This document shows, in pieces, positions 1,649 to 17,822 of a stretch of DNA of 25,399 nt. Position numbers and translations under genes: made by a program. The notes under the pieces were generated by a model. It searched no databases, was not told where the DNA came from, and saw only the letters and a list, made by a program, of their open reading frames with translations. Origin of the DNA: a virus (lineage: Duplodnaviria; Heunggongvirae; Uroviricota; Caudoviricetes); IMG/VR virus record IMGVR_UViG_3300005437_000011. One strand, written 5' to 3'. The number at the start of each line of letters is the position of its first letter. Within the stretch, counting starts at the first letter, position 1.

Positions 1649-1800
1649 TTAATCAGCCCAGCCCTAAAGGGGCAGAGCCTTTGAGAGATGAGCGCCGCGG
1701 AACACGCAGCTTCGTCTTCTCTTTCCTGCTTCGTCCGGTCGCCTCGAGCACGATCCCGTCCACAGGCTTCAGCGAGCGATTCGCACGCTGTTTCAAAACT
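1649..1800 (-). ncRNA. Probable TnpB omega-RNA scaffold / IS right end (5' extent approximate)
   Basis: Minus-strand hairpin GGCTC-T-GCCC-CTTTA-GGGC-T-GGGCT (1655-1679) followed by GATTAA, overlapping the last tnpB codons. Position and CTTTAGGGC-type loop resemble IS605-group right ends. Confidence 0.6.
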
Positions 1801-2855
1801 TTTGCTGCATTCAGGTCAGCATGATCAACGTAGCCACAGGCAACACAGCAGAAGCGGTCAGCCTTTCGCGACGCAGCGTCAACGACGCCGCACGCAGAAC
1901 ACGTTTGCGAACTGTACTGCGCAGGGACTTCGACAAGCGTCCCGCCGCTCCACGCGAGTTTGTAGCGGAGCATGTTCGCAAACATCGACCAGCCCGCGCT
2001 AGCGATGCTGCGTGACAAGCTCCGATTCCGTTGCATCCCAGCGACCTGAAGTTTCTCAATCACCACGACCCCGTTCGACTTGGCTATCGTCGACGAGAGG
2101 TCGTGGAGAAAATGTTCGCGCTGGCGCCGCACTTTGCGGTGGATGCGCATGACACGGAGCTTGGCCTTCTCGCGGTTCTTGGATCCTTTCTTCTTTCTGG
2201 AAACGGCGCGCTGCGCATGGGCGAGGCGTTTCAAGGCGTGATCGTAGTGCTTTGGGTTCGGCGTGAGATTGCCGTCGGAATCAGCGAGCAGGTTCGTGAT
2301 GCCGCGGTCGATCGCGAGGACTGGATGAGTTCGTGGCACTGGATCAGCGATCTGGACCTCGCAAACGATCGACGCAAACCATTGATCACCGTCACGCTTC
2401 AATGTGCAGGTTTTCGGCTTTCCTTCGATCGGTCGATGCATCACGGCGCGCAGATTTCCAAGTTTTGGAAAGCGAATATAATCACCGTTAAGTCTCCAGC
2501 ATTTGGAGTGTGACTCAGTGAAACTTAGTGGCTCTCCTCCCCGCTTCTTCCAGCGCGGCTCACGGCAAATACGCTTGAAGCAACGCGACCAGGCCTTATC
2601 CAGTTCGACAAGAAACTGGGCAGCAACGTCACGTGGGACATCCGCCAGCCAAGGGAGAACCTTGCGGAGTTGAGTCAGTTCGTTGATCTGATCAAATGCT
2701 GTCGGATAATATTTATCCGTACGCGATAAACCGAGGAGCCGCTGCTCATTGGCTAGATTCCACAGGAATCGCAATGCGCTGTCCCATCGCGCAAGTCTCT
2801 GCTCTTGCGCTTGCGTCGGATAAATCCGAAAACTGAATGCCTTATGGATGATCAT
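1653..2855 (-). CDS. tnpB: TnpB RNA-guided endonuclease
   Basis: N-terminal KAFSFRIYPT HTH; RuvC-I AIDRG, RuvC-II VVIEKL, Zn finger CSACG...CVACG, RuvC-III HADLNAA. All three acidic catalytic residues are present. Confidence 0.95.
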   Translation of the reverse strand: MIIHKAFSFRIYPTQAQEQRLARWDSALRFLWNLANEQRLLGLSRTDKYYPTAFDQINELTQLRKVLPWLADVPRDVAAQFLVELDKAWSRCFKRICREPRWKKRGGEPLSFTESHSKCWRLNGDYIRFPKLGNLRAVMHRPIEGKPKTCTLKRDGDQWFASIVCEVQIADPVPRTHPVLAIDRGITNLLADSDGNLTPNPKHYDHALKRLAHAQRAVSRKKKGSKNREKAKLRVMRIHRKVRRQREHFLHDLSSTIAKSNGVVVIEKLQVAGMQRNRSLSRSIASAGWSMFANMLRYKLAWSGGTLVEVPAQYSSQTCSACGVVDAASRKADRFCCVACGYVDHADLNAAKVLKQRANRSLKPVDGIVLEATGRSRKEKTKLRVPRRSSLKGSAPLGLG

Positions 2856-2949: not shown

Positions 2950-3306
2950 TCATCTGCCAACCGCAACAAGTTGCGTGGCGATTAGTTGTCGGAGCTGGCG
3001 CGCCGGAATCACCGGCCATCCGTGTTGCCACGGCCACACTTTCTTCCAGCCTTGTGGCGTGACAGTGAGCACCTGGTTCGGCGCTGGCGTTGCATCGCCA
3101 ACCATCCAGCCAAGGCGAATGAGCGGACCCGCGTTTACGTCCGTCACGTTGAGCAATTCCGCCGCGCGTTTGCGGGTCAATCCGCGCTTGAAGGTTCGTT
3201 CGTGGGCCATCACCGCCACGATCAGCTCGAGAGCATAGGGCGTGATCCCATACGCGATCCGGCAGCGACGGTGCCGCGCTTGCACTGAGTTATCCGGGTC
3301 GTTCAT
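2950..3306 (-). CDS. Hypothetical protein, possibly winged-helix
   Basis: Start moved to ATG 3306 (ATGA overlap with the upstream stop). LTRKRAAELL...LIRLGW...LTVTPQGW pattern. Confidence 0.6.
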   Translation of the reverse strand: MNDPDNSVQARHRRCRIAYGITPYALELIVAVMAHERTFKRGLTRKRAAELLNVTDVNAGPLIRLGWMVGDATPAPNQVLTVTPQGWKKVWPWQHGWPVIPARQLRQLIATQLVAVGR

Positions 3307-3875
3307 GGCCCGCGCCAGCCTTGCTCGCGTAGCAGCCGGCCGACGTCCGGAGCCGTCCACCCGACGGGCTTCTCGACCTTACCGTCCTCCCGGACTCCAC
3401 CGCCGAGCTTCGACATATTTGCGGCGTGAACAGCGCGCGCGAGCGGCTTCAGGTCCACGCCGAACTCGATGGCCGAACCTTGATGGATGTAGTTCATGTC
3501 GAGCCACGAATCGACGAGTGCCGGAAGGTCGACGTGTGCCTTACAGAGCTTGATCAGGAACATCACCTCGGATTCGAGCCTTGCGATCCAACCACGCTGC
3601 GCCCCGTCGTTGTCACCGGACTCCGCGAAGCATGCGGTGAGTTGCTCGAAGAATTCCTCAGCGGACAGGCGCAGCCGAAGCTTTACCCGCTCTTCGTCCG
3701 GAGTCAGCGGCGGTCCGGAGAAGCACGGGATCTTCATCGCGCTCTGAAACTCCCAGACCTGGCAGAACAGGTCGTCCGCCTGCCGGTTCAGGTGCAGCCG
3801 GGTCATCGTTTCCTGCAGCTCGGTCACCTGCTGGCGCAGGCGCGCATTCTCAGCCTCTAGCTCTTCAGTGGTCAC
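3303..3875 (-). CDS. MazG-like (PRA-PH/DR2231-type) nucleoside triphosphate pyrophosphohydrolase with N-terminal coiled coil
   Basis: LRLRLSAEEFFEQ, DSWLD, VHAANMSK...REDGKVEKPVGWTAPD are characteristic of this all-alpha NTP-PPase family. GTGA-coupled. Confidence 0.85.
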   Translation of the reverse strand: MTTEELEAENARLRQQVTELQETMTRLHLNRQADDLFCQVWEFQSAMKIPCFSGPPLTPDEERVKLRLRLSAEEFFEQLTACFAESGDNDGAQRGWIARLESEVMFLIKLCKAHVDLPALVDSWLDMNYIHQGSAIEFGVDLKPLARAVHAANMSKLGGGVREDGKVEKPVGWTAPDVGRLLREQGWRGP

Positions 3876-12879: not shown

Positions 12880-13052
12880 GTGTAGTGTCCCTTCGCTTGT
12901 TCACGAGCGGCGTTTAGCTCGACCAATAGAACCCCACCCACCCCACCGGGGCGTCCAACCAACGCCGCTGGAGAGCATCCCCCGCGGCGCTTTCCGGCTG
13001 TCACCATCCCAGCTGCCGGTCCGATGGAATGGGTGGGAGAGTTTGCTTTCAC
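12876..13052 (-). CDS. Possible 58-aa ORF overlapping a structured RNA-like segment
   Basis: GTG 13052 and TGA 12876 overlap both neighbours by 4 nt, but the product (MKANSPTHSIGPAAG...GHYT) is Gly-rich and featureless. Confidence 0.3.
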   Translation of the reverse strand: MKANSPTHSIGPAAGMVTAGKRRGGCSPAALVGRPGGVGGVLLVELNAAREQAKGHYT

Positions 13053-13801
13053 CGGGCGTTGCCCTTGGTGTCGACTCGGACGCTGCGGCCCGAGCTCATG
13101 TCGAACACACCGATGGTGGGCTCCAGAGCGCGTCTGAAGTCGGGCGAAAGCTGCACCGCGGAGCCAGGCCCGGTGACGAGCTGCATCCTACGCAGGTCGG
13201 CGAGCGCCTGCCCGACTGTGCCTGAGCCGCGCGAGACGCCGAGCGCATCCGCAATGTCTGCGCTCGACACGGGATGATGGAGTGGCCGAAGGTACCGAAG
13301 CACGCGTTCGGCGCCACCGCCGAGCTTTTGGCACCAGAAGAGGAAGAGCGCCTGCCCGGCGGGTAGCGCCGCATACTCGCCTAGCGCTTCGAGCCCCGCC
13401 CCATTGATTGTAACAGCAGAGCCAGGGCCGTTGATGAGGCCGTCGCGACGCAGGTCCGCCAGTCCTTGACCAATGGTTCCCGAGCCCTTGCTCACACCAA
13501 GCCAGAACGCGAGTTGCGCGGAACTCAACGGGCGAGCGAGCTGAGCGAGCGCAACAAGGATCTTGCGCTGCGTCTTTGTGAGGCCTTCGGACTGCGCCTC
13601 GGCGTCCACCACGGCGAGCGGCTTCTGTTTTCGTGCCTTGGGCATAGGCTTCGCGAATGGCGCAGGAAACTCGATACCCGAGTCATCACGGAGCAAGTTT
13701 TTCTTGTCGCCCGTCAGCCGCAGCGCAGCCGCTACCACCTGGCAGGCCCGCCCGAGTTCATCGAAGGCGTGAGCCAGAACCTCTTCGTGCTCCGTGCTCA
13801 T
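13049..13801 (-). CDS. Protein with two tandem winged-helix DNA-binding domains
   Basis: RPLSSAQLAFWLGVSKGSGTIGQGLADLRRDGLINGPGSAV repeated 86 aa later as HPVSSADIADALGVSRGSGTVGQALADLRRMQLVTGPGSAV. Confidence 0.8.
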   Translation of the reverse strand: MSTEHEEVLAHAFDELGRACQVVAAALRLTGDKKNLLRDDSGIEFPAPFAKPMPKARKQKPLAVVDAEAQSEGLTKTQRKILVALAQLARPLSSAQLAFWLGVSKGSGTIGQGLADLRRDGLINGPGSAVTINGAGLEALGEYAALPAGQALFLFWCQKLGGGAERVLRYLRPLHHPVSSADIADALGVSRGSGTVGQALADLRRMQLVTGPGSAVQLSPDFRRALEPTIGVFDMSSGRSVRVDTKGNAR

Positions 13802-14353: not shown

Positions 14354-15442
14354 TCATTTGACCACCGCAGGCAAGTGAAATTCTCGGTAAGTCGGTGGGC
14401 CAACGAGCTTCTGCAACAGCTCAGAGAACTCATCGCGCAACGCCCACGCGTCATTGGGACGGCGCCCAGGCGCAATCATCAGGCATCCTCCTAGGAAATT
14501 GCGAAATCGCACCGGTGCCGCATGCAGACCGACTAGCGCCAAGCCAACTCGTGCCCACATGTACACGTCCGTCGCGGCGGTTACGGGTTGCTTGGTGAGC
14601 ACCTCTGGCGGGTACCAGTGCCGGTAGTCAACACTGATCGCGCGCACGACGCCCTTCCCAAGCGGTGCCGCGCAGCCCCAGCCAATGAGCTTCGCCCCGT
14701 GCTCGGTCGGGTGGACCATCACGTGCTCGGGTAGGATCGCGCCGTGCACGTATCCGAGCTGGTGGACGTGACCAAGCCCCTCAAGCATTCGCTTGAGCAT
14801 CCACGCCGCGTCTCGGAAGTCGATGTAGTTCGGGTAGGCGTCGATCACCTGCCGGAGTGAGACGTGCTCCGGATAGAACGGGATGACATTCACACGACGG
14901 ACGGTCTTGGTTGCTCCGTGCAGGGTGAATGAGCCGTGTAGCGTGGGCAGGTAGCGCGCGTGGTTGTGCCCCTTGGACTTCTCGTTCAGCGCCTTGAGCA
15001 CCGCGGCCTCGTTCTCCACGAGATCGTTGTCGCTTGGGTGCTGCGCGATCTTGACGACGGCCGCGCCGACGCCGACTTGACCGACGTAAAGATCGCATAT
15101 GTCGCCCTTGCATAGTTCGCGCTCGATCGCGATCGTCTGCCGACCGACCTTGATCGTGACCGGTGTGAACGCTGGCTTAGCCGCCGGCGCAACGGTCTTC
15201 GTCCCGTAGATCCCGATCCGGATCCGTTCCTCCGCCTCGGCGTGGAGCGCTCCGAGCCGGGTGAAGGCGTCTTTCGCTACCTGCGAGGCGCTCGGATCCG
15301 ATGCAAATCGGTCAGGGTGTACCGCGGCCGCCATGCGCCGGAAGAGAACGCCAAGGGACGCGCAGGGCACACCGAATAGCTCCTCCGGCGTGGCCGAGTC
15401 TCGAATTTTAGACGCTTGTTCTTTGAGTGCTGTTACGTCCAT
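14354..15442 (-). CDS. N-terminal DnaJ-type J-domain fused to a Ser/Thr-kinase-like (probably pseudokinase) domain
   Basis: Start moved to ATG 15442 (overlaps the PurA-like stop). FRRMAAAVHPD gives the J-domain HPD. VVKIA and NEAAVL are kept; catalytic loop reads HGAILPEH and the DFG position reads GWG. Confidence 0.85.
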   Translation of the reverse strand: MDVTALKEQASKIRDSATPEELFGVPCASLGVLFRRMAAAVHPDRFASDPSASQVAKDAFTRLGALHAEAEERIRIGIYGTKTVAPAAKPAFTPVTIKVGRQTIAIERELCKGDICDLYVGQVGVGAAVVKIAQHPSDNDLVENEAAVLKALNEKSKGHNHARYLPTLHGSFTLHGATKTVRRVNVIPFYPEHVSLRQVIDAYPNYIDFRDAAWMLKRMLEGLGHVHQLGYVHGAILPEHVMVHPTEHGAKLIGWGCAAPLGKGVVRAISVDYRHWYPPEVLTKQPVTAATDVYMWARVGLALVGLHAAPVRFRNFLGGCLMIAPGRRPNDAWALRDEFSELLQKLVGPPTYREFHLPAVVK

Positions 15443-16641
15443 TGGCTTCGCTTTCGCTTGTCGCCCGTCTTCGGGCCCCAGGATGTGAGCGTGACTGGCG
15501 CGCCGAGTTCGCTCTGGATGATATCGAGCAGCTCGGCGTCGTTGTGAAACCGCAGACGGTGGTACACGGGGCGGCACGTCGCGAGGTAGGAGGCATCCGG
15601 CCGGAATGCCGTCGTGTAGTTCAAGCACACGTGTTCCGGGATGCGATCCATATGGGTCACCGCGATCTCATCCACTCCAGCCACGCAACGAATGGCGTAG
15701 GTCAAAGCCGGAAAGTCGAGCTCACCCGTTCGGAACTTTCCCTGGAACCCATCGTCGCCGTTGTGTGGCTCGGGGAACTTGAGACCGGACTCCGTCACCA
15801 TCGGACCGGCGCCGTGGCGAGTCATGTAGGAGCGCAGCACGCCGATGCGGCGGACGCTCGACACGTTCGGTAGAGCCTCTGCGATCAGAGTCTCGGCGTT
15901 CTCGAAAGTTGTCTTCGTCCAGGTATTGTGGGGCGCAAATCCGAAATCCTGATCCAGCAACACGCCCTGCGCGCCCTCAAAGATGACCGTGCCGTCACGC
16001 TCTAAGATCTTGCGGGTCTCCTCGCCGTCGACGATGCGTAGCTTGGAAGCGAGATCGATCCAGTGTTGGACGTGCGGTTCGCGATAGTGCTCAGCGGCAG
16101 AAAACTGCGCGATATAATTTTGCCGCAAGACGTCTAGCTTTGCGTCCAGAAGCTTGGGGTTCCCTAGATCGCGCACGCGAATGGCGCTGTCTGGATGCGC
16201 CTCGAAACAGGCAGCGGTCTCGCCGATTCCCATGCCACACGTCCCATGCTTGGCTTCGCCCCGCGCCTCTTCGCGCCAGCGATTGGCCATCATATGCCAG
16301 TGCGTCGTGACGAGTGCGTCTCCGTCGATCGTCATGCGCTCGTAGGCGTCGGTGACGCCGATCTCGCGAAGAGCTTTCTCTTCGTTAATCAGTGTCGTCG
16401 GGTTAACGAGCATGAAGCGGCTGAGATGTGTGCGCGCGCCATTGAACGTACCGCTTCCGAACTGCGCGAAGGTGTGGCGGCGACCGTCATCCTCAATAAC
16501 TGTATGCGCGGCCTGTCCACCACCGTTGAAGCGAATCACCGTGTGCGCCTGGGTTTCGCGCGCCAAATACGCGCAACTGGTGCCTTTTCCTTCGTCGCCG
16601 AAACCTAAACCGACCACGATTTTTACTCTGCTTCCCATCAC
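15433..16641 (-). CDS. purA: Divergent adenylosuccinate synthetase (PurA-family) protein
   Basis: GLGFGDEGKG, RFNGGGQAAHTV, GTCGMGIGE, FEGAQGVLLD, TRHGAGP, SWGP. Start GTG 16641 or ATG 16638. The substrate loop is atypical (see findings). Confidence 0.9.
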   Translation of the reverse strand: MMGSRVKIVVGLGFGDEGKGTSCAYLARETQAHTVIRFNGGGQAAHTVIEDDGRRHTFAQFGSGTFNGARTHLSRFMLVNPTTLINEEKALREIGVTDAYERMTIDGDALVTTHWHMMANRWREEARGEAKHGTCGMGIGETAACFEAHPDSAIRVRDLGNPKLLDAKLDVLRQNYIAQFSAAEHYREPHVQHWIDLASKLRIVDGEETRKILERDGTVIFEGAQGVLLDQDFGFAPHNTWTKTTFENAETLIAEALPNVSSVRRIGVLRSYMTRHGAGPMVTESGLKFPEPHNGDDGFQGKFRTGELDFPALTYAIRCVAGVDEIAVTHMDRIPEHVCLNYTTAFRPDASYLATCRPVYHRLRFHNDAELLDIIQSELGAPVTLTSWGPKTGDKRKRSQWT

Positions 16642-16658
16642 TGCACCGTTCCAAGTAG

Positions 16659-16693
16659 CTACGCAGAGGCGCCAGCGTAGCGCCCCTGCGTAG
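16659..16693. other. 14-bp intergenic hairpin between the vWA and PurA-like genes
   Basis: ctacgcagaggcgc (16659-16672) / gcgcccctgcgtag (16680-16693); fully paired on the minus strand with one G-U. No U-tract. Confidence 0.75.
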
Positions 16694-16700
16694 GCTGAGT

Positions 16701-17690
16701 TCAGATCCGCGCGCTCTTGTCGCTCTTCACGAGCGACTCAGGCAGCGAACCAGTGCCAGTCACCGCGAGCGAGGTGCTCTTGGCGAGGCCGTCGAGGCCG
16801 GAGACGACAGCGCTCGCCACCGATGCCGAAGCGCCAGCAGAAGCGAGATCGTCACCCATCGTGTGGAGGTCGGTGGTCCCTTCCACGAGTCCAATCGCGA
16901 CGCCGATCGTCTCGCAGACCGCCTCTGGGTTGTCGAGCGTGATCACGTTTTGCGGACCGAGCAACCCGCCCCACAAGCCCTTGAACTCGTGCTTGTGGCT
17001 CGTGTTGCCCGGAGTCAGGAAGAACACGTGGTAGCGCTCCTGGCACTCCGCGATCATCTCTTCCACGGTCAGGTCAGACTGAACCGTGTCACCAAAGATG
17101 CGCGCGATTTCCTCCTTGGAGCTCTTCGGATACGGCTTTTCGTCGCCGATTACGAACAAGAAGCCCTTGCGATTACGCTTCTCCCAAGCGTCGGACACAG
17201 TGTGCCGAGCGAAAAAGTAGAAGACGTTCTGGTAGGACTCCCGCGGTTCGCCACCGCCGCCGTTGCCTTCGAGGTAAAGCTTCGTCAGATCGTCGTCCAT
17301 CTCGATGCCGGACTCAAACTGTCCGACTTGGAGCGGGGCCTGGTCCGAATAGAAGTCGCCCACGGCGCCAAACAAGATCTGCGGATCTTGCACGTATCCC
17401 TTCCGTAGTAGAAGCCCCATCAGGTTTGGGATCTTCTTCTGCAGCGTGACGGGCACGCCGCCCATGGATCCCGTCACATCAAAGATGACGCCGATCGGGA
17501 CGGATTGCGGGTGGTCGGCGCTGTCACGAGCTTCGCGCGTGACGCCCTTCGGGTCGAGAGAGCTGTGCGTTTTTGCCGCCGCCTTGCCCTTCGAGATGTC
17601 GTCGGTATGCGCGAACGTCGGCACGCCGCGCGCTACGCGGTCTGCCGCTCGGGACTTGTAGTGGTCGTCGGAATAGCTTGAGCCACCCAT
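16701..17690 (-). CDS. von Willebrand factor A (vWA) domain protein
   Basis: MIDAS-like IFDVTGSMG, GAVGD, QVGQFES, GNGGG, FVIGDE; typical prokaryotic stand-alone vWA. Confidence 0.88.
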   Translation of the reverse strand: MGGSSYSDDHYKSRAADRVARGVPTFAHTDDISKGKAAAKTHSSLDPKGVTREARDSADHPQSVPIGVIFDVTGSMGGVPVTLQKKIPNLMGLLLRKGYVQDPQILFGAVGDFYSDQAPLQVGQFESGIEMDDDLTKLYLEGNGGGGEPRESYQNVFYFFARHTVSDAWEKRNRKGFLFVIGDEKPYPKSSKEEIARIFGDTVQSDLTVEEMIAECQERYHVFFLTPGNTSHKHEFKGLWGGLLGPQNVITLDNPEAVCETIGVAIGLVEGTTDLHTMGDDLASAGASASVASAVVSGLDGLAKSTSLAVTGTGSLPESLVKSDKSARI

Positions 17691-17764
17691 TTTTACTGTG
17701 CGCTTTCTACCGGCGTGGCCGGCTCTAATGTTTTGTGCTGTTGTTCATTCGAATCGCCGCAGAA

Positions 17765-17816
17765 GTGGACGACGGGAGGCTGAGGGGAGCAGCCCGCAGC
17801 CGTCGCCCGCTTCCAC
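17765..17816 (-). promoter_or_regulatory. Leader hairpin, copy A, with CTCCCCT loop
   Basis: Core GCTG-CTCCCCT-CAGC-CTC (17776-17793) inside an outer stem (cgacgg/ccgtcg, gtgga/tccac), upstream of the vWA gene. Homologous to 25247-25301. Confidence 0.55.
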
Positions 17817-17822
17817 GGCGGT

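Follow-up and report, generated by a model that had tools for sequence, protein, structure and literature searches.

To our knowledge, two uses of the chemistry of adenylosuccinate synthetase (PurA, EC 6.3.4.4) have been described, the synthesis of adenosine monophosphate (AMP) and the PurZ route to DNA containing 2-aminoadenine. PurZ and PurZ0 of the 2-aminoadenine (Z-genome) phages are phage-encoded PurA paralogues with an altered substrate use that still take aspartate, and their companions are DatZ, MazZ and DpoZ. Proteins of the von Willebrand factor A (vWA) type with a metal ion-dependent adhesion site (MIDAS) act as adaptors in the MoxR AAA+/vWA pairs (CbbQ-CbbO, NorQ-NorD), where they stand beside an enzyme and the supplier or recruiter of an ATP-driven remodeller. 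The TerY-P triad consists of the TerY vWA protein, a Ser/Thr kinase and PP2C. Characterised NrtR proteins are ADP-ribose-responsive repressors of nicotinamide adenine dinucleotide (NAD) genes, and NAD+ reconstitution by phages is known from NARP1 and NARP2. The three-gene module analysed here has features in common with each of these systems. It occupies positions 14354-17690 of the IMG/VR virus record IMGVR_UViG_3300005437_000011, a DNA stretch of 25,399 nt from a member of the Caudoviricetes (the window). All three genes are on the minus strand, in the order vWA protein, PurA-like ligase, J-domain pseudokinase. The module is real, conserved and widespread, and we found no description of it in the literature; the genome papers on cluster C phages list gene names only. 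It joins three parts not known to cooperate, namely a ligase of the PurA fold that lacks an aspartate site, a vWA protein with a MIDAS and a putatively Hsp70-recruiting pseudokinase.

With PurA of Escherichia coli (PDB 1ADE/1KJX) the enzyme of the module shares the PF00709 fold, the GDxGKG P-loop, the catalytic His and Gln, the guanine Asp and the S-x-G-P loop, but none of its loci had purine genes and almost all had the vWA partner. It resembles PurZ as a phage-encoded paralogue of PurA with a presumably altered substrate use, yet it has no aspartate pocket and is accompanied by the vWA protein and the J-pseudokinase. From the MoxR/vWA pairs the module differs by the lack of an AAA+ gene; the J-domain pseudokinase would recruit the Hsp70 of the host instead. 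With TerY-P the module shares an operon that encodes a cytoplasmic vWA protein together with a kinase fold of the Hanks type, in bacteria as well as in mobile elements, whereas the kinase of the module appears to be dead and its third gene codes for a PurA-like ligase. Bacterial copies have an NrtR-type gene and a palindromic operator as in NrtR regulons, and one phage copy has NAD-type neighbours; the known NAD salvage enzymes of NARP1 and NARP2 are not homologous to the trio.

Three long open reading frames (ORFs) were found on the minus strand exactly where a preceding sequence-only reading of the window had placed three adjacent, co-oriented genes. The vWA gene (16701-17690; 329 aa, phrog_2971 at 1.3e-63) is followed by the PurA-like gene (15433-16638; 401 aa from the ATG at 16638, with a GTG at 16641), whose product would be GTP-dependent by analogy with PurA, and by the gene for the J-domain and kinase-like protein (14354-15442; 362 aa). 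The last of these divides into a helical J-domain with an HPD motif (15218-15442, about residues 1-75) and a Hanks-type pseudokinase domain (about residues 95-347) with the C-terminus (14354-15160). Its ATG at 15442 overlaps the stop of the PurA-like gene by 10 nt (ATGGACGTAA), in agreement with the overlap that had been reported. A 424-aa ORF from a GTG at 15628 is over-extended, as homologues align from the ATG at 15442, and the JGI start call at 15370 is too short. Hundreds of homologues for each of the three genes exclude chance ORFs.

The PurA-like protein matches PF00709 at 2e-57 and phrog_1211 at 1.9e-73. In the alignment with E. coli PurA it keeps Asp13, Lys16, His41 and Gln224, an intact P-loop motif (GDEGKG), the guanine-specificity Asp333 (E. 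coli numbering; D332 here) and the C-terminal S-x-G-P loop. The corresponding D16, K19, H46 and Q225 are invariant across the bacterial and phage members. Since the fold and the P-loop Asp, catalytic His and Gln, guanine Asp and S-x-G-P are kept, GTP-driven O6 activation is likely retained. The aspartate loop of PurA, Thr300/Thr301-Gly-Arg303-Arg304-Arg305, is replaced by F-Q-G-K-F-R in the window copy and by W-Q-G-x-F-R in the family consensus. In its place the family has invariant residues of its own, H276, N294 and Q300, and a nearly invariant R304. Among the ligands of the 5'-phosphate of inosine monophosphate (IMP), Asn38, Thr129, Arg143' and Thr239 correspond to Gln, Cys, Asp and Thr, so one of four is unchanged. 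The absence of Thr301, Arg303, Arg305 and Arg143 is family-wide and not private to the window copy. On the PurA equivalog models the protein stays far below the cut-offs (NF002223, 147.4 bits against 402; TIGR00184, 127.2 against 395.6), and the same is true for the PurZ model NF038379 (50.7 bits against 300). Because the aspartate loop and two IMP-phosphate ligands are lost, while the Asp that PurZ exchanges for Ser is kept, we regard the protein as neither a housekeeping PurA nor a PurZ. The sequence-only reading that the protein does not serve ordinary AMP biosynthesis is supported: the aspartate pocket is gone and the equivalog score is too low. A possible Zn-type metal site in the pocket of the enzyme (His132, Cys135, His276 and Cys339) was considered and rejected, as His132 and Cys135 are not universal in the phage members.

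Conservation of the gene neighbourhood was surveyed with the vWA alignment in one genome per prokaryotic species and in IMG/VR, in which 358 stretches encode the vWA protein; the counts given here and below refer to the best 80 loci of each set. Homologues of the vWA protein occur in at least 569 bacterial species genomes. The kinase, vWA and PurA-like genes lie in that order on one strand in 67 of the 80 bacterial loci and the vWA and PurA-like pair in another 9, while most of the remaining 4 stop at contig ends. These loci span Actinomycetota, Chloroflexota, Planctomycetota and Myxococcota. In IMG/VR the trio was present in 69 of 80 loci and the pair in 7. The linkage is conserved, and the proposal of a dedicated trio is well founded in this respect. 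The gene order of the window copy is of a minority type, present in 5 of the 80 IMG/VR loci. A tblastn search of 50,697 phage records detected the PurA-like gene in 241, the vWA gene in 220 and the kinase gene in 203 records, 201 of them for each gene being Bxz1-type (cluster C) mycobacteriophages. Phage Rizal has the order kinase, vWA, small ORF, PurA-like. Only the vWA-PurA pair is present in Rhizobium phage RHph_TM2_3B and Vibrio phage SRILMA; tblastn detected no kinase homologue in the Rhizobium or Vibrio phage records. The PurA-like protein alone gave no relative in viral_contigs; the search with the vWA alignment was successful. The window corresponds to a 39.3-kb contig of JGI metagenome 3300025898. 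When 25 kb of it were compared with phage and plasmid records by megablast, no match was obtained, therefore the element is not a sequenced isolate; a 128-kb Logan contig carries a syntenic relative with 66-72 % identity. A survey from 2026 counted 481 phage PF00709 proteins and assigned 147 phage sequences (151 with four archaeal ones) to the PurZ group, leaving the rest undiscussed (PMC12884076). The module accounts for a large share of the phage PF00709 proteins outside the PurZ group.

No Pfam, NCBIfam or PADLOC family matched the vWA protein. Its AlphaFold2 model, built with 25 homologues, has a mean predicted local distance difference test score (pLDDT) of 87.9 and matches integrin I-domains and the vWA domain of NorD in Foldseek with a probability of 1.0. 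In the ESM Atlas, residues 61-308 or so align with PF00092 clusters at template modelling scores of 0.54-0.58 by query and 0.33-0.72 by match. The residues of a MIDAS-type site, D71-x-T73-x-S75, E151/S152 and D183, are invariant in the 25 sequences, and metal binding is predicted from them. A Met-Gly N-terminus was found in 80 of 80 bacterial loci, each ATG placed after a Shine-Dalgarno sequence, and it is followed by x3-W/Y-S-x-D-x-Y; much the same holds for the phage copies. The model shows residues 1-4 as flexible. The C-terminal tail is disordered and variable with a hydrophobic end, ..SARI in the window (16701-16730), ..x-R-L in actinomycetes and ..G-V-I-x-L in many phages. Among the 158 loci (within L006-L166) in which the presence of the kinase gene could be judged, the vWA protein had a hydrophobic last residue (L, I, V, F or M) in 133 of 145 cases with a neighbouring kinase gene versus 3 of 13 without (Fisher 7e-8); another raw Fisher test of the association gave 3e-6. 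The co-occurrence is suggestive of a handle or docking motif for the J-pseudokinase or DnaK and is taken as a lead only. A complex predicted for the PurA-like and vWA proteins from self-made alignments scored 0.00, which we take neither for nor against a contact.

The vWA gene of Mycobacterium phage Sauce (L167:2501-4288) is interrupted by an in-frame intein of about 257 aa. It starts with Cys1, contains a LAG-x2-DGEG block of the LAGLIDADG type, ends with Asn followed by Cys+1, and is inserted directly before the MIDAS strand I-F-I-G-D-E. Inteins favour indispensable sites, hence the position fits a functional MIDAS. The invariance of Met-Gly, the co-occurrence of tail and kinase, and the intein at the MIDAS strand in some mycobacteriophages are new observations. 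The intein-bearing gene of Sauce is annotated wholly as 'HNH endonuclease'; an intein is likewise attributed to other cluster C phages in which the match to the vWA protein was limited to residues 1-178.

The third protein matches Pkinase at 1.3e-9 and phrog_3043 at 7e-43. In the model of this protein (pLDDT 91.8), residues 3-75 form a helical domain at the N-terminus and residues 95-347 a kinase fold. Among the best Foldseek matches are the pseudokinases VRK3 and BubR1, and the J-domain/kinase chimera DNAJB1-PRKACA (4wb7) aligns over 405 columns. Across 24 family members the VAIK Lys and the alpha-C Glu are invariant. HRD is invariantly HGA, the Lys and Asn of the catalytic loop are changed to Leu and His, and DFG is GWG in the window copy and DW or GW across the family, with DW in most relatives. 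By these residues the kinase is predicted to be catalytically dead, phosphate transfer being impossible. His and Pro of the HPD motif (H42-P43) are conserved to at least 90 % and the Asp is present in most rows; only two planctomycete copies have lost the motif. The description as a J-domain pseudokinase, drawn earlier from HGA, GWG and an HPD in a helical N-terminal domain, is confirmed in each of these motifs.

Clustering of neighbouring ORFs revealed a gene of the NrtR type (Nudix and NrtR_WHD) directly upstream of the trio in 61 of the 80 bacterial loci. In actinomycetes these NrtR-like proteins have an intact Nudix box, elsewhere a degenerate one. Two palindromes of the type TCTCA-N3-TGAGA (TCTCA-N3-NGAG) separate a promoter-like element from the start codon of the NrtR-like gene; they were observed in 49 of 56 bacterial loci, whereas the matched control regions had none. 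The double palindrome, for example L079:4172-4210 and L014:4224-4262 and likewise in 47 further loci, lies 3' of a TAAGTT box resembling a -10 element and probably serves the NrtR-like gene as autoregulatory operator. In IMG/VR the NrtR-like gene was found in 6 of the 80 loci. The pair of RHph_TM2_3B is located about 3 kb downstream of a phosphoribosyltransferase-like gene and a gene annotated as nicotinamide mononucleotide adenylyltransferase/Nudix, all on the same strand. Because the bacterial operon is headed by an NrtR-type Nudix repressor, the module appears to be tied to ADP-ribose or NAD signalling rather than to DNA modification. The sequence-only reading was right about a conserved unit in a phage-like setting that does not serve AMP synthesis, and had overlooked this four-gene bacterial operon.

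We read these observations, with a probability of roughly 0.45, as a composite: a 6-oxopurine nucleotide is activated at O6 at the expense of GTP, the phosphate is displaced by a neutral amine other than aspartate, the vWA protein is the physical partner of the enzyme, Hsp70 is recruited via the J-domain with docking of the vWA tail, and the module is induced as ADP-ribose rises. The catalytic subunit would constitute a third branch of the adenylosuccinate synthetase family. In analogy to PurA it would bind GTP and a 6-oxopurine nucleotide and phosphorylate O6 by means of Asp, His, Gln and the P-loop Lys; an amine other than aspartate would then displace the O6 phosphate. An uncharged nucleophile and a substrate unlike plain IMP are expected, because neutral residues (His, Asn and Gln) have taken the place of the Arg/Thr pocket for aspartate and the pocket of the 5'-phosphate has been reshaped. 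The vWA protein would be an obligate partner of the enzyme; the linkage was observed and the contact is inferred. The J-pseudokinase most likely brings DnaK/Hsp70 of the host to the vWA protein, probably via the hydrophobic C-terminal anchor of the latter, and the arrangement would act like a MoxR-vWA remodelling pair with Hsp70 as motor. In bacteria the module would be held off by the NrtR-type repressor and probably turned on when NAD+ is consumed, since characterised NrtRs sense ADP-ribose. The phage copy has neither repressor nor operator, and its neighbours are genes for nucleotide, DNA and RNA-repair functions; a role in maintaining or reshaping the pool of adenine nucleotides and NAD during infection would fit this. 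Coupling of a purine nucleotide to a non-aspartate amine, a protein side chain as acceptor, and the vWA protein and J-pseudokinase as scaffold and substrate delivery were put forward before; they are proposals drawn from residue conservation and gene linkage.

Several points weigh against this composite. We infer the substrate, the nucleophile and the product alike. The window contains no NrtR gene, no NrtR-type operator on either strand and no recognisable NAD gene, and the tie to NAD or ADP-ribose is drawn from relatives in bacteria and from the gene neighbourhood in one Rhizobium phage. The sequence match of the J-domain is under the Pfam threshold (DnaJ E about 0.09), and nucleotide binding by the pseudokinase is hinted at only by the kept Lys-Glu pair. 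The association between tail and kinase reduces to 4-6 independent contrasts on the tree, none of them in the wrong direction, and a sign test was not significant. Finally, vWA protein and pseudokinase could be parts of a signalling device, with the PurA-like protein as no more than a GTP-binding sensor.

The last point leads to one of two unlikely alternatives. The other one concerns the acceptor. The enzyme may be a protein-directed ligase that joins the activated purine nucleotide to the alpha-amine of the N-terminal Gly of the vWA protein or to another protein amine, with the J-pseudokinase and DnaK handling the conjugate. The invariant Met-Gly with its conserved downstream motif on a flexible N-terminus is as expected for such a target, the neutral residues in the former aspartate pocket could take a peptide amine, and the genes for enzyme and vWA protein are almost never apart. 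However, an invariant N-terminus can be explained otherwise, by a degron, by packing or by translation initiation, and the PurA-like gene is nearly always present, so there is no contrast against which the N-terminal Gly could be tested. We consider this alternative unlikely.

Similarly improbable is a signalling or conflict device of the TerY-P type, in which vWA protein and pseudokinase act as sensor and scaffold and the PurA-like protein is a GTP switch or an effector, for instance for nucleotide depletion, rather than a biosynthetic ligase. The vWA and kinase-like genes in one operon are reminiscent of TerY-P, the kinase domain gave weak matches to defence kinases in PADLOC (MAD6 at 7.8e-14, MkoA, PD-T4-6), and a repressor gates the bacterial operon. 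Against it stand the dead kinase, the lack of PP2C among the window ORFs scanned and of a PADLOC model match for the vWA or PurA-like protein. The catalytic residues of the ligase are all invariant, which is unexpected for a mere switch, and the module resides in about 200 lytic mycobacteriophages.

An ordinary auxiliary metabolic gene, that is a divergent and functional adenylosuccinate synthetase which boosts AMP during infection beside unrelated neighbours, is very improbable. The PF00709 fold and the complete set of phosphotransfer residues would be in line with it, and databases annotate the protein as 'adenylosuccinate synthetase'; yet the score of 147 bits against a cut-off of 402, the family-wide loss of the Arg and Thr residues named above and a linkage to the vWA gene that is near-obligate in phages as well as in four phyla all disagree. 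A PurZ-like pathway that would supply the phage genome with a modified purine deoxynucleotide, for example 2-aminoadenine, is harder still to credit, even though the enzyme is a phage PurA homologue, RefSeq and PHROGs give the family a PurZ-like label and a MazG-like gene is present 11 kb from the module: Asp13 is exchanged for Ser in every phage PurZ/PurZ0 (PMC12884076) and kept in the module family, the score on the PurZ model is low, the window (a part of the genome) showed no HD-type dATPase or Z-specific polymerase (HD or PolA match) among the ORFs scanned, a Dam-type N6-adenine methyltransferase is encoded about 0.8 kb upstream of the module and implies ordinary adenine in the DNA, and hundreds of bacteria have the module in their chromosomes as well. 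The probability beyond the composite and these four alternatives was left unassigned.

In a further-reaching form of the composite, which is itself rather unlikely, the enzyme would be a purine aminase or ligase that does not depend on aspartate. With GTP as driving force it would regenerate, in a single step, adenine nucleotides or dinucleotides related to NAD, starting from the 6-oxo (inosine-type) forms of these or from intermediates derived from ADP-ribose. Its induction in bacteria would occur via NrtR when NAD+ is burnt, and large phages would use it to undo host defences of the RADAR, Kongming, Thoeris or SIR2 type, which deaminate adenine nucleotides or deplete NAD+. The vWA protein and the J-recruited Hsp70 would be required for loading or release of a tightly bound intermediate. 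With the bacterial module wired to a sensor of the ADP-ribose type, identification of the product would add a new purine or NAD reaction and probably also a new layer of phage-host conflict over nucleotide pools. The Bxz1-type phages of Mycobacterium smegmatis offer a tractable and non-pathogenic test system.

The surroundings of the module in the window are those of a phage, as the sequence-only reading had stated: genes for SbcCD, the Dam methylase, a MazG-like protein, RlaP and a CCA enzyme are present on this metagenomic contig, together with PHROG matches. The genes of the RNA-repair type, CCA enzyme and RlaP, occupy positions 3-1579. They are separated by a TnpB/IS605 OrfB-type gene (1653-2855, minus strand; OrfB_IS605, Cas12f1-like TNB and HTH) from the gene of the MazG-like pyrophosphatase at 3303-3875. 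Two genes downstream of the pseudokinase, positions 13049-13801 (minus strand) encode a 250-aa protein with two winged-helix regions (ArsR/MarR/Crp-like) that might be a local regulator in place of the missing NrtR.

Two RNA hairpins accompany the module on the minus strand. The spacer of 59 nt between the vWA and PurA-like genes contains a hairpin at 16657-16696 (-30.9 kcal/mol, z -3.1) without a U-tract, which may tune the expression ratio or the stability of the mRNA. The leader 5' of the vWA gene (17691-17822) had no sigma-70-like promoter match and forms a long stem-loop at 17756-17821 with a z of -3.7 and no U-tract after it; this hairpin had been noted separately as a repeated hairpin with a CUCCCCU loop.

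RNA-repair-type genes recur at distances of a few kb from the module in other phages. RtcB, HAD_SAK_2 and R2K ATP-grasp genes were seen in IMG/VR loci (L126:818-1993, L143:555-1148, L164:4226-4996) and PnK in Bxz1-type phages (L001:2292-2813). These neighbours probably stem from one or few phage lineages and were not taken as functional evidence. In several IMG/VR phages, free-standing homing endonuclease genes of the LAGLIDADG and GIY-YIG types are located between or beside the vWA and PurA-like genes (L137:3014-4009, L157:9592-10422).

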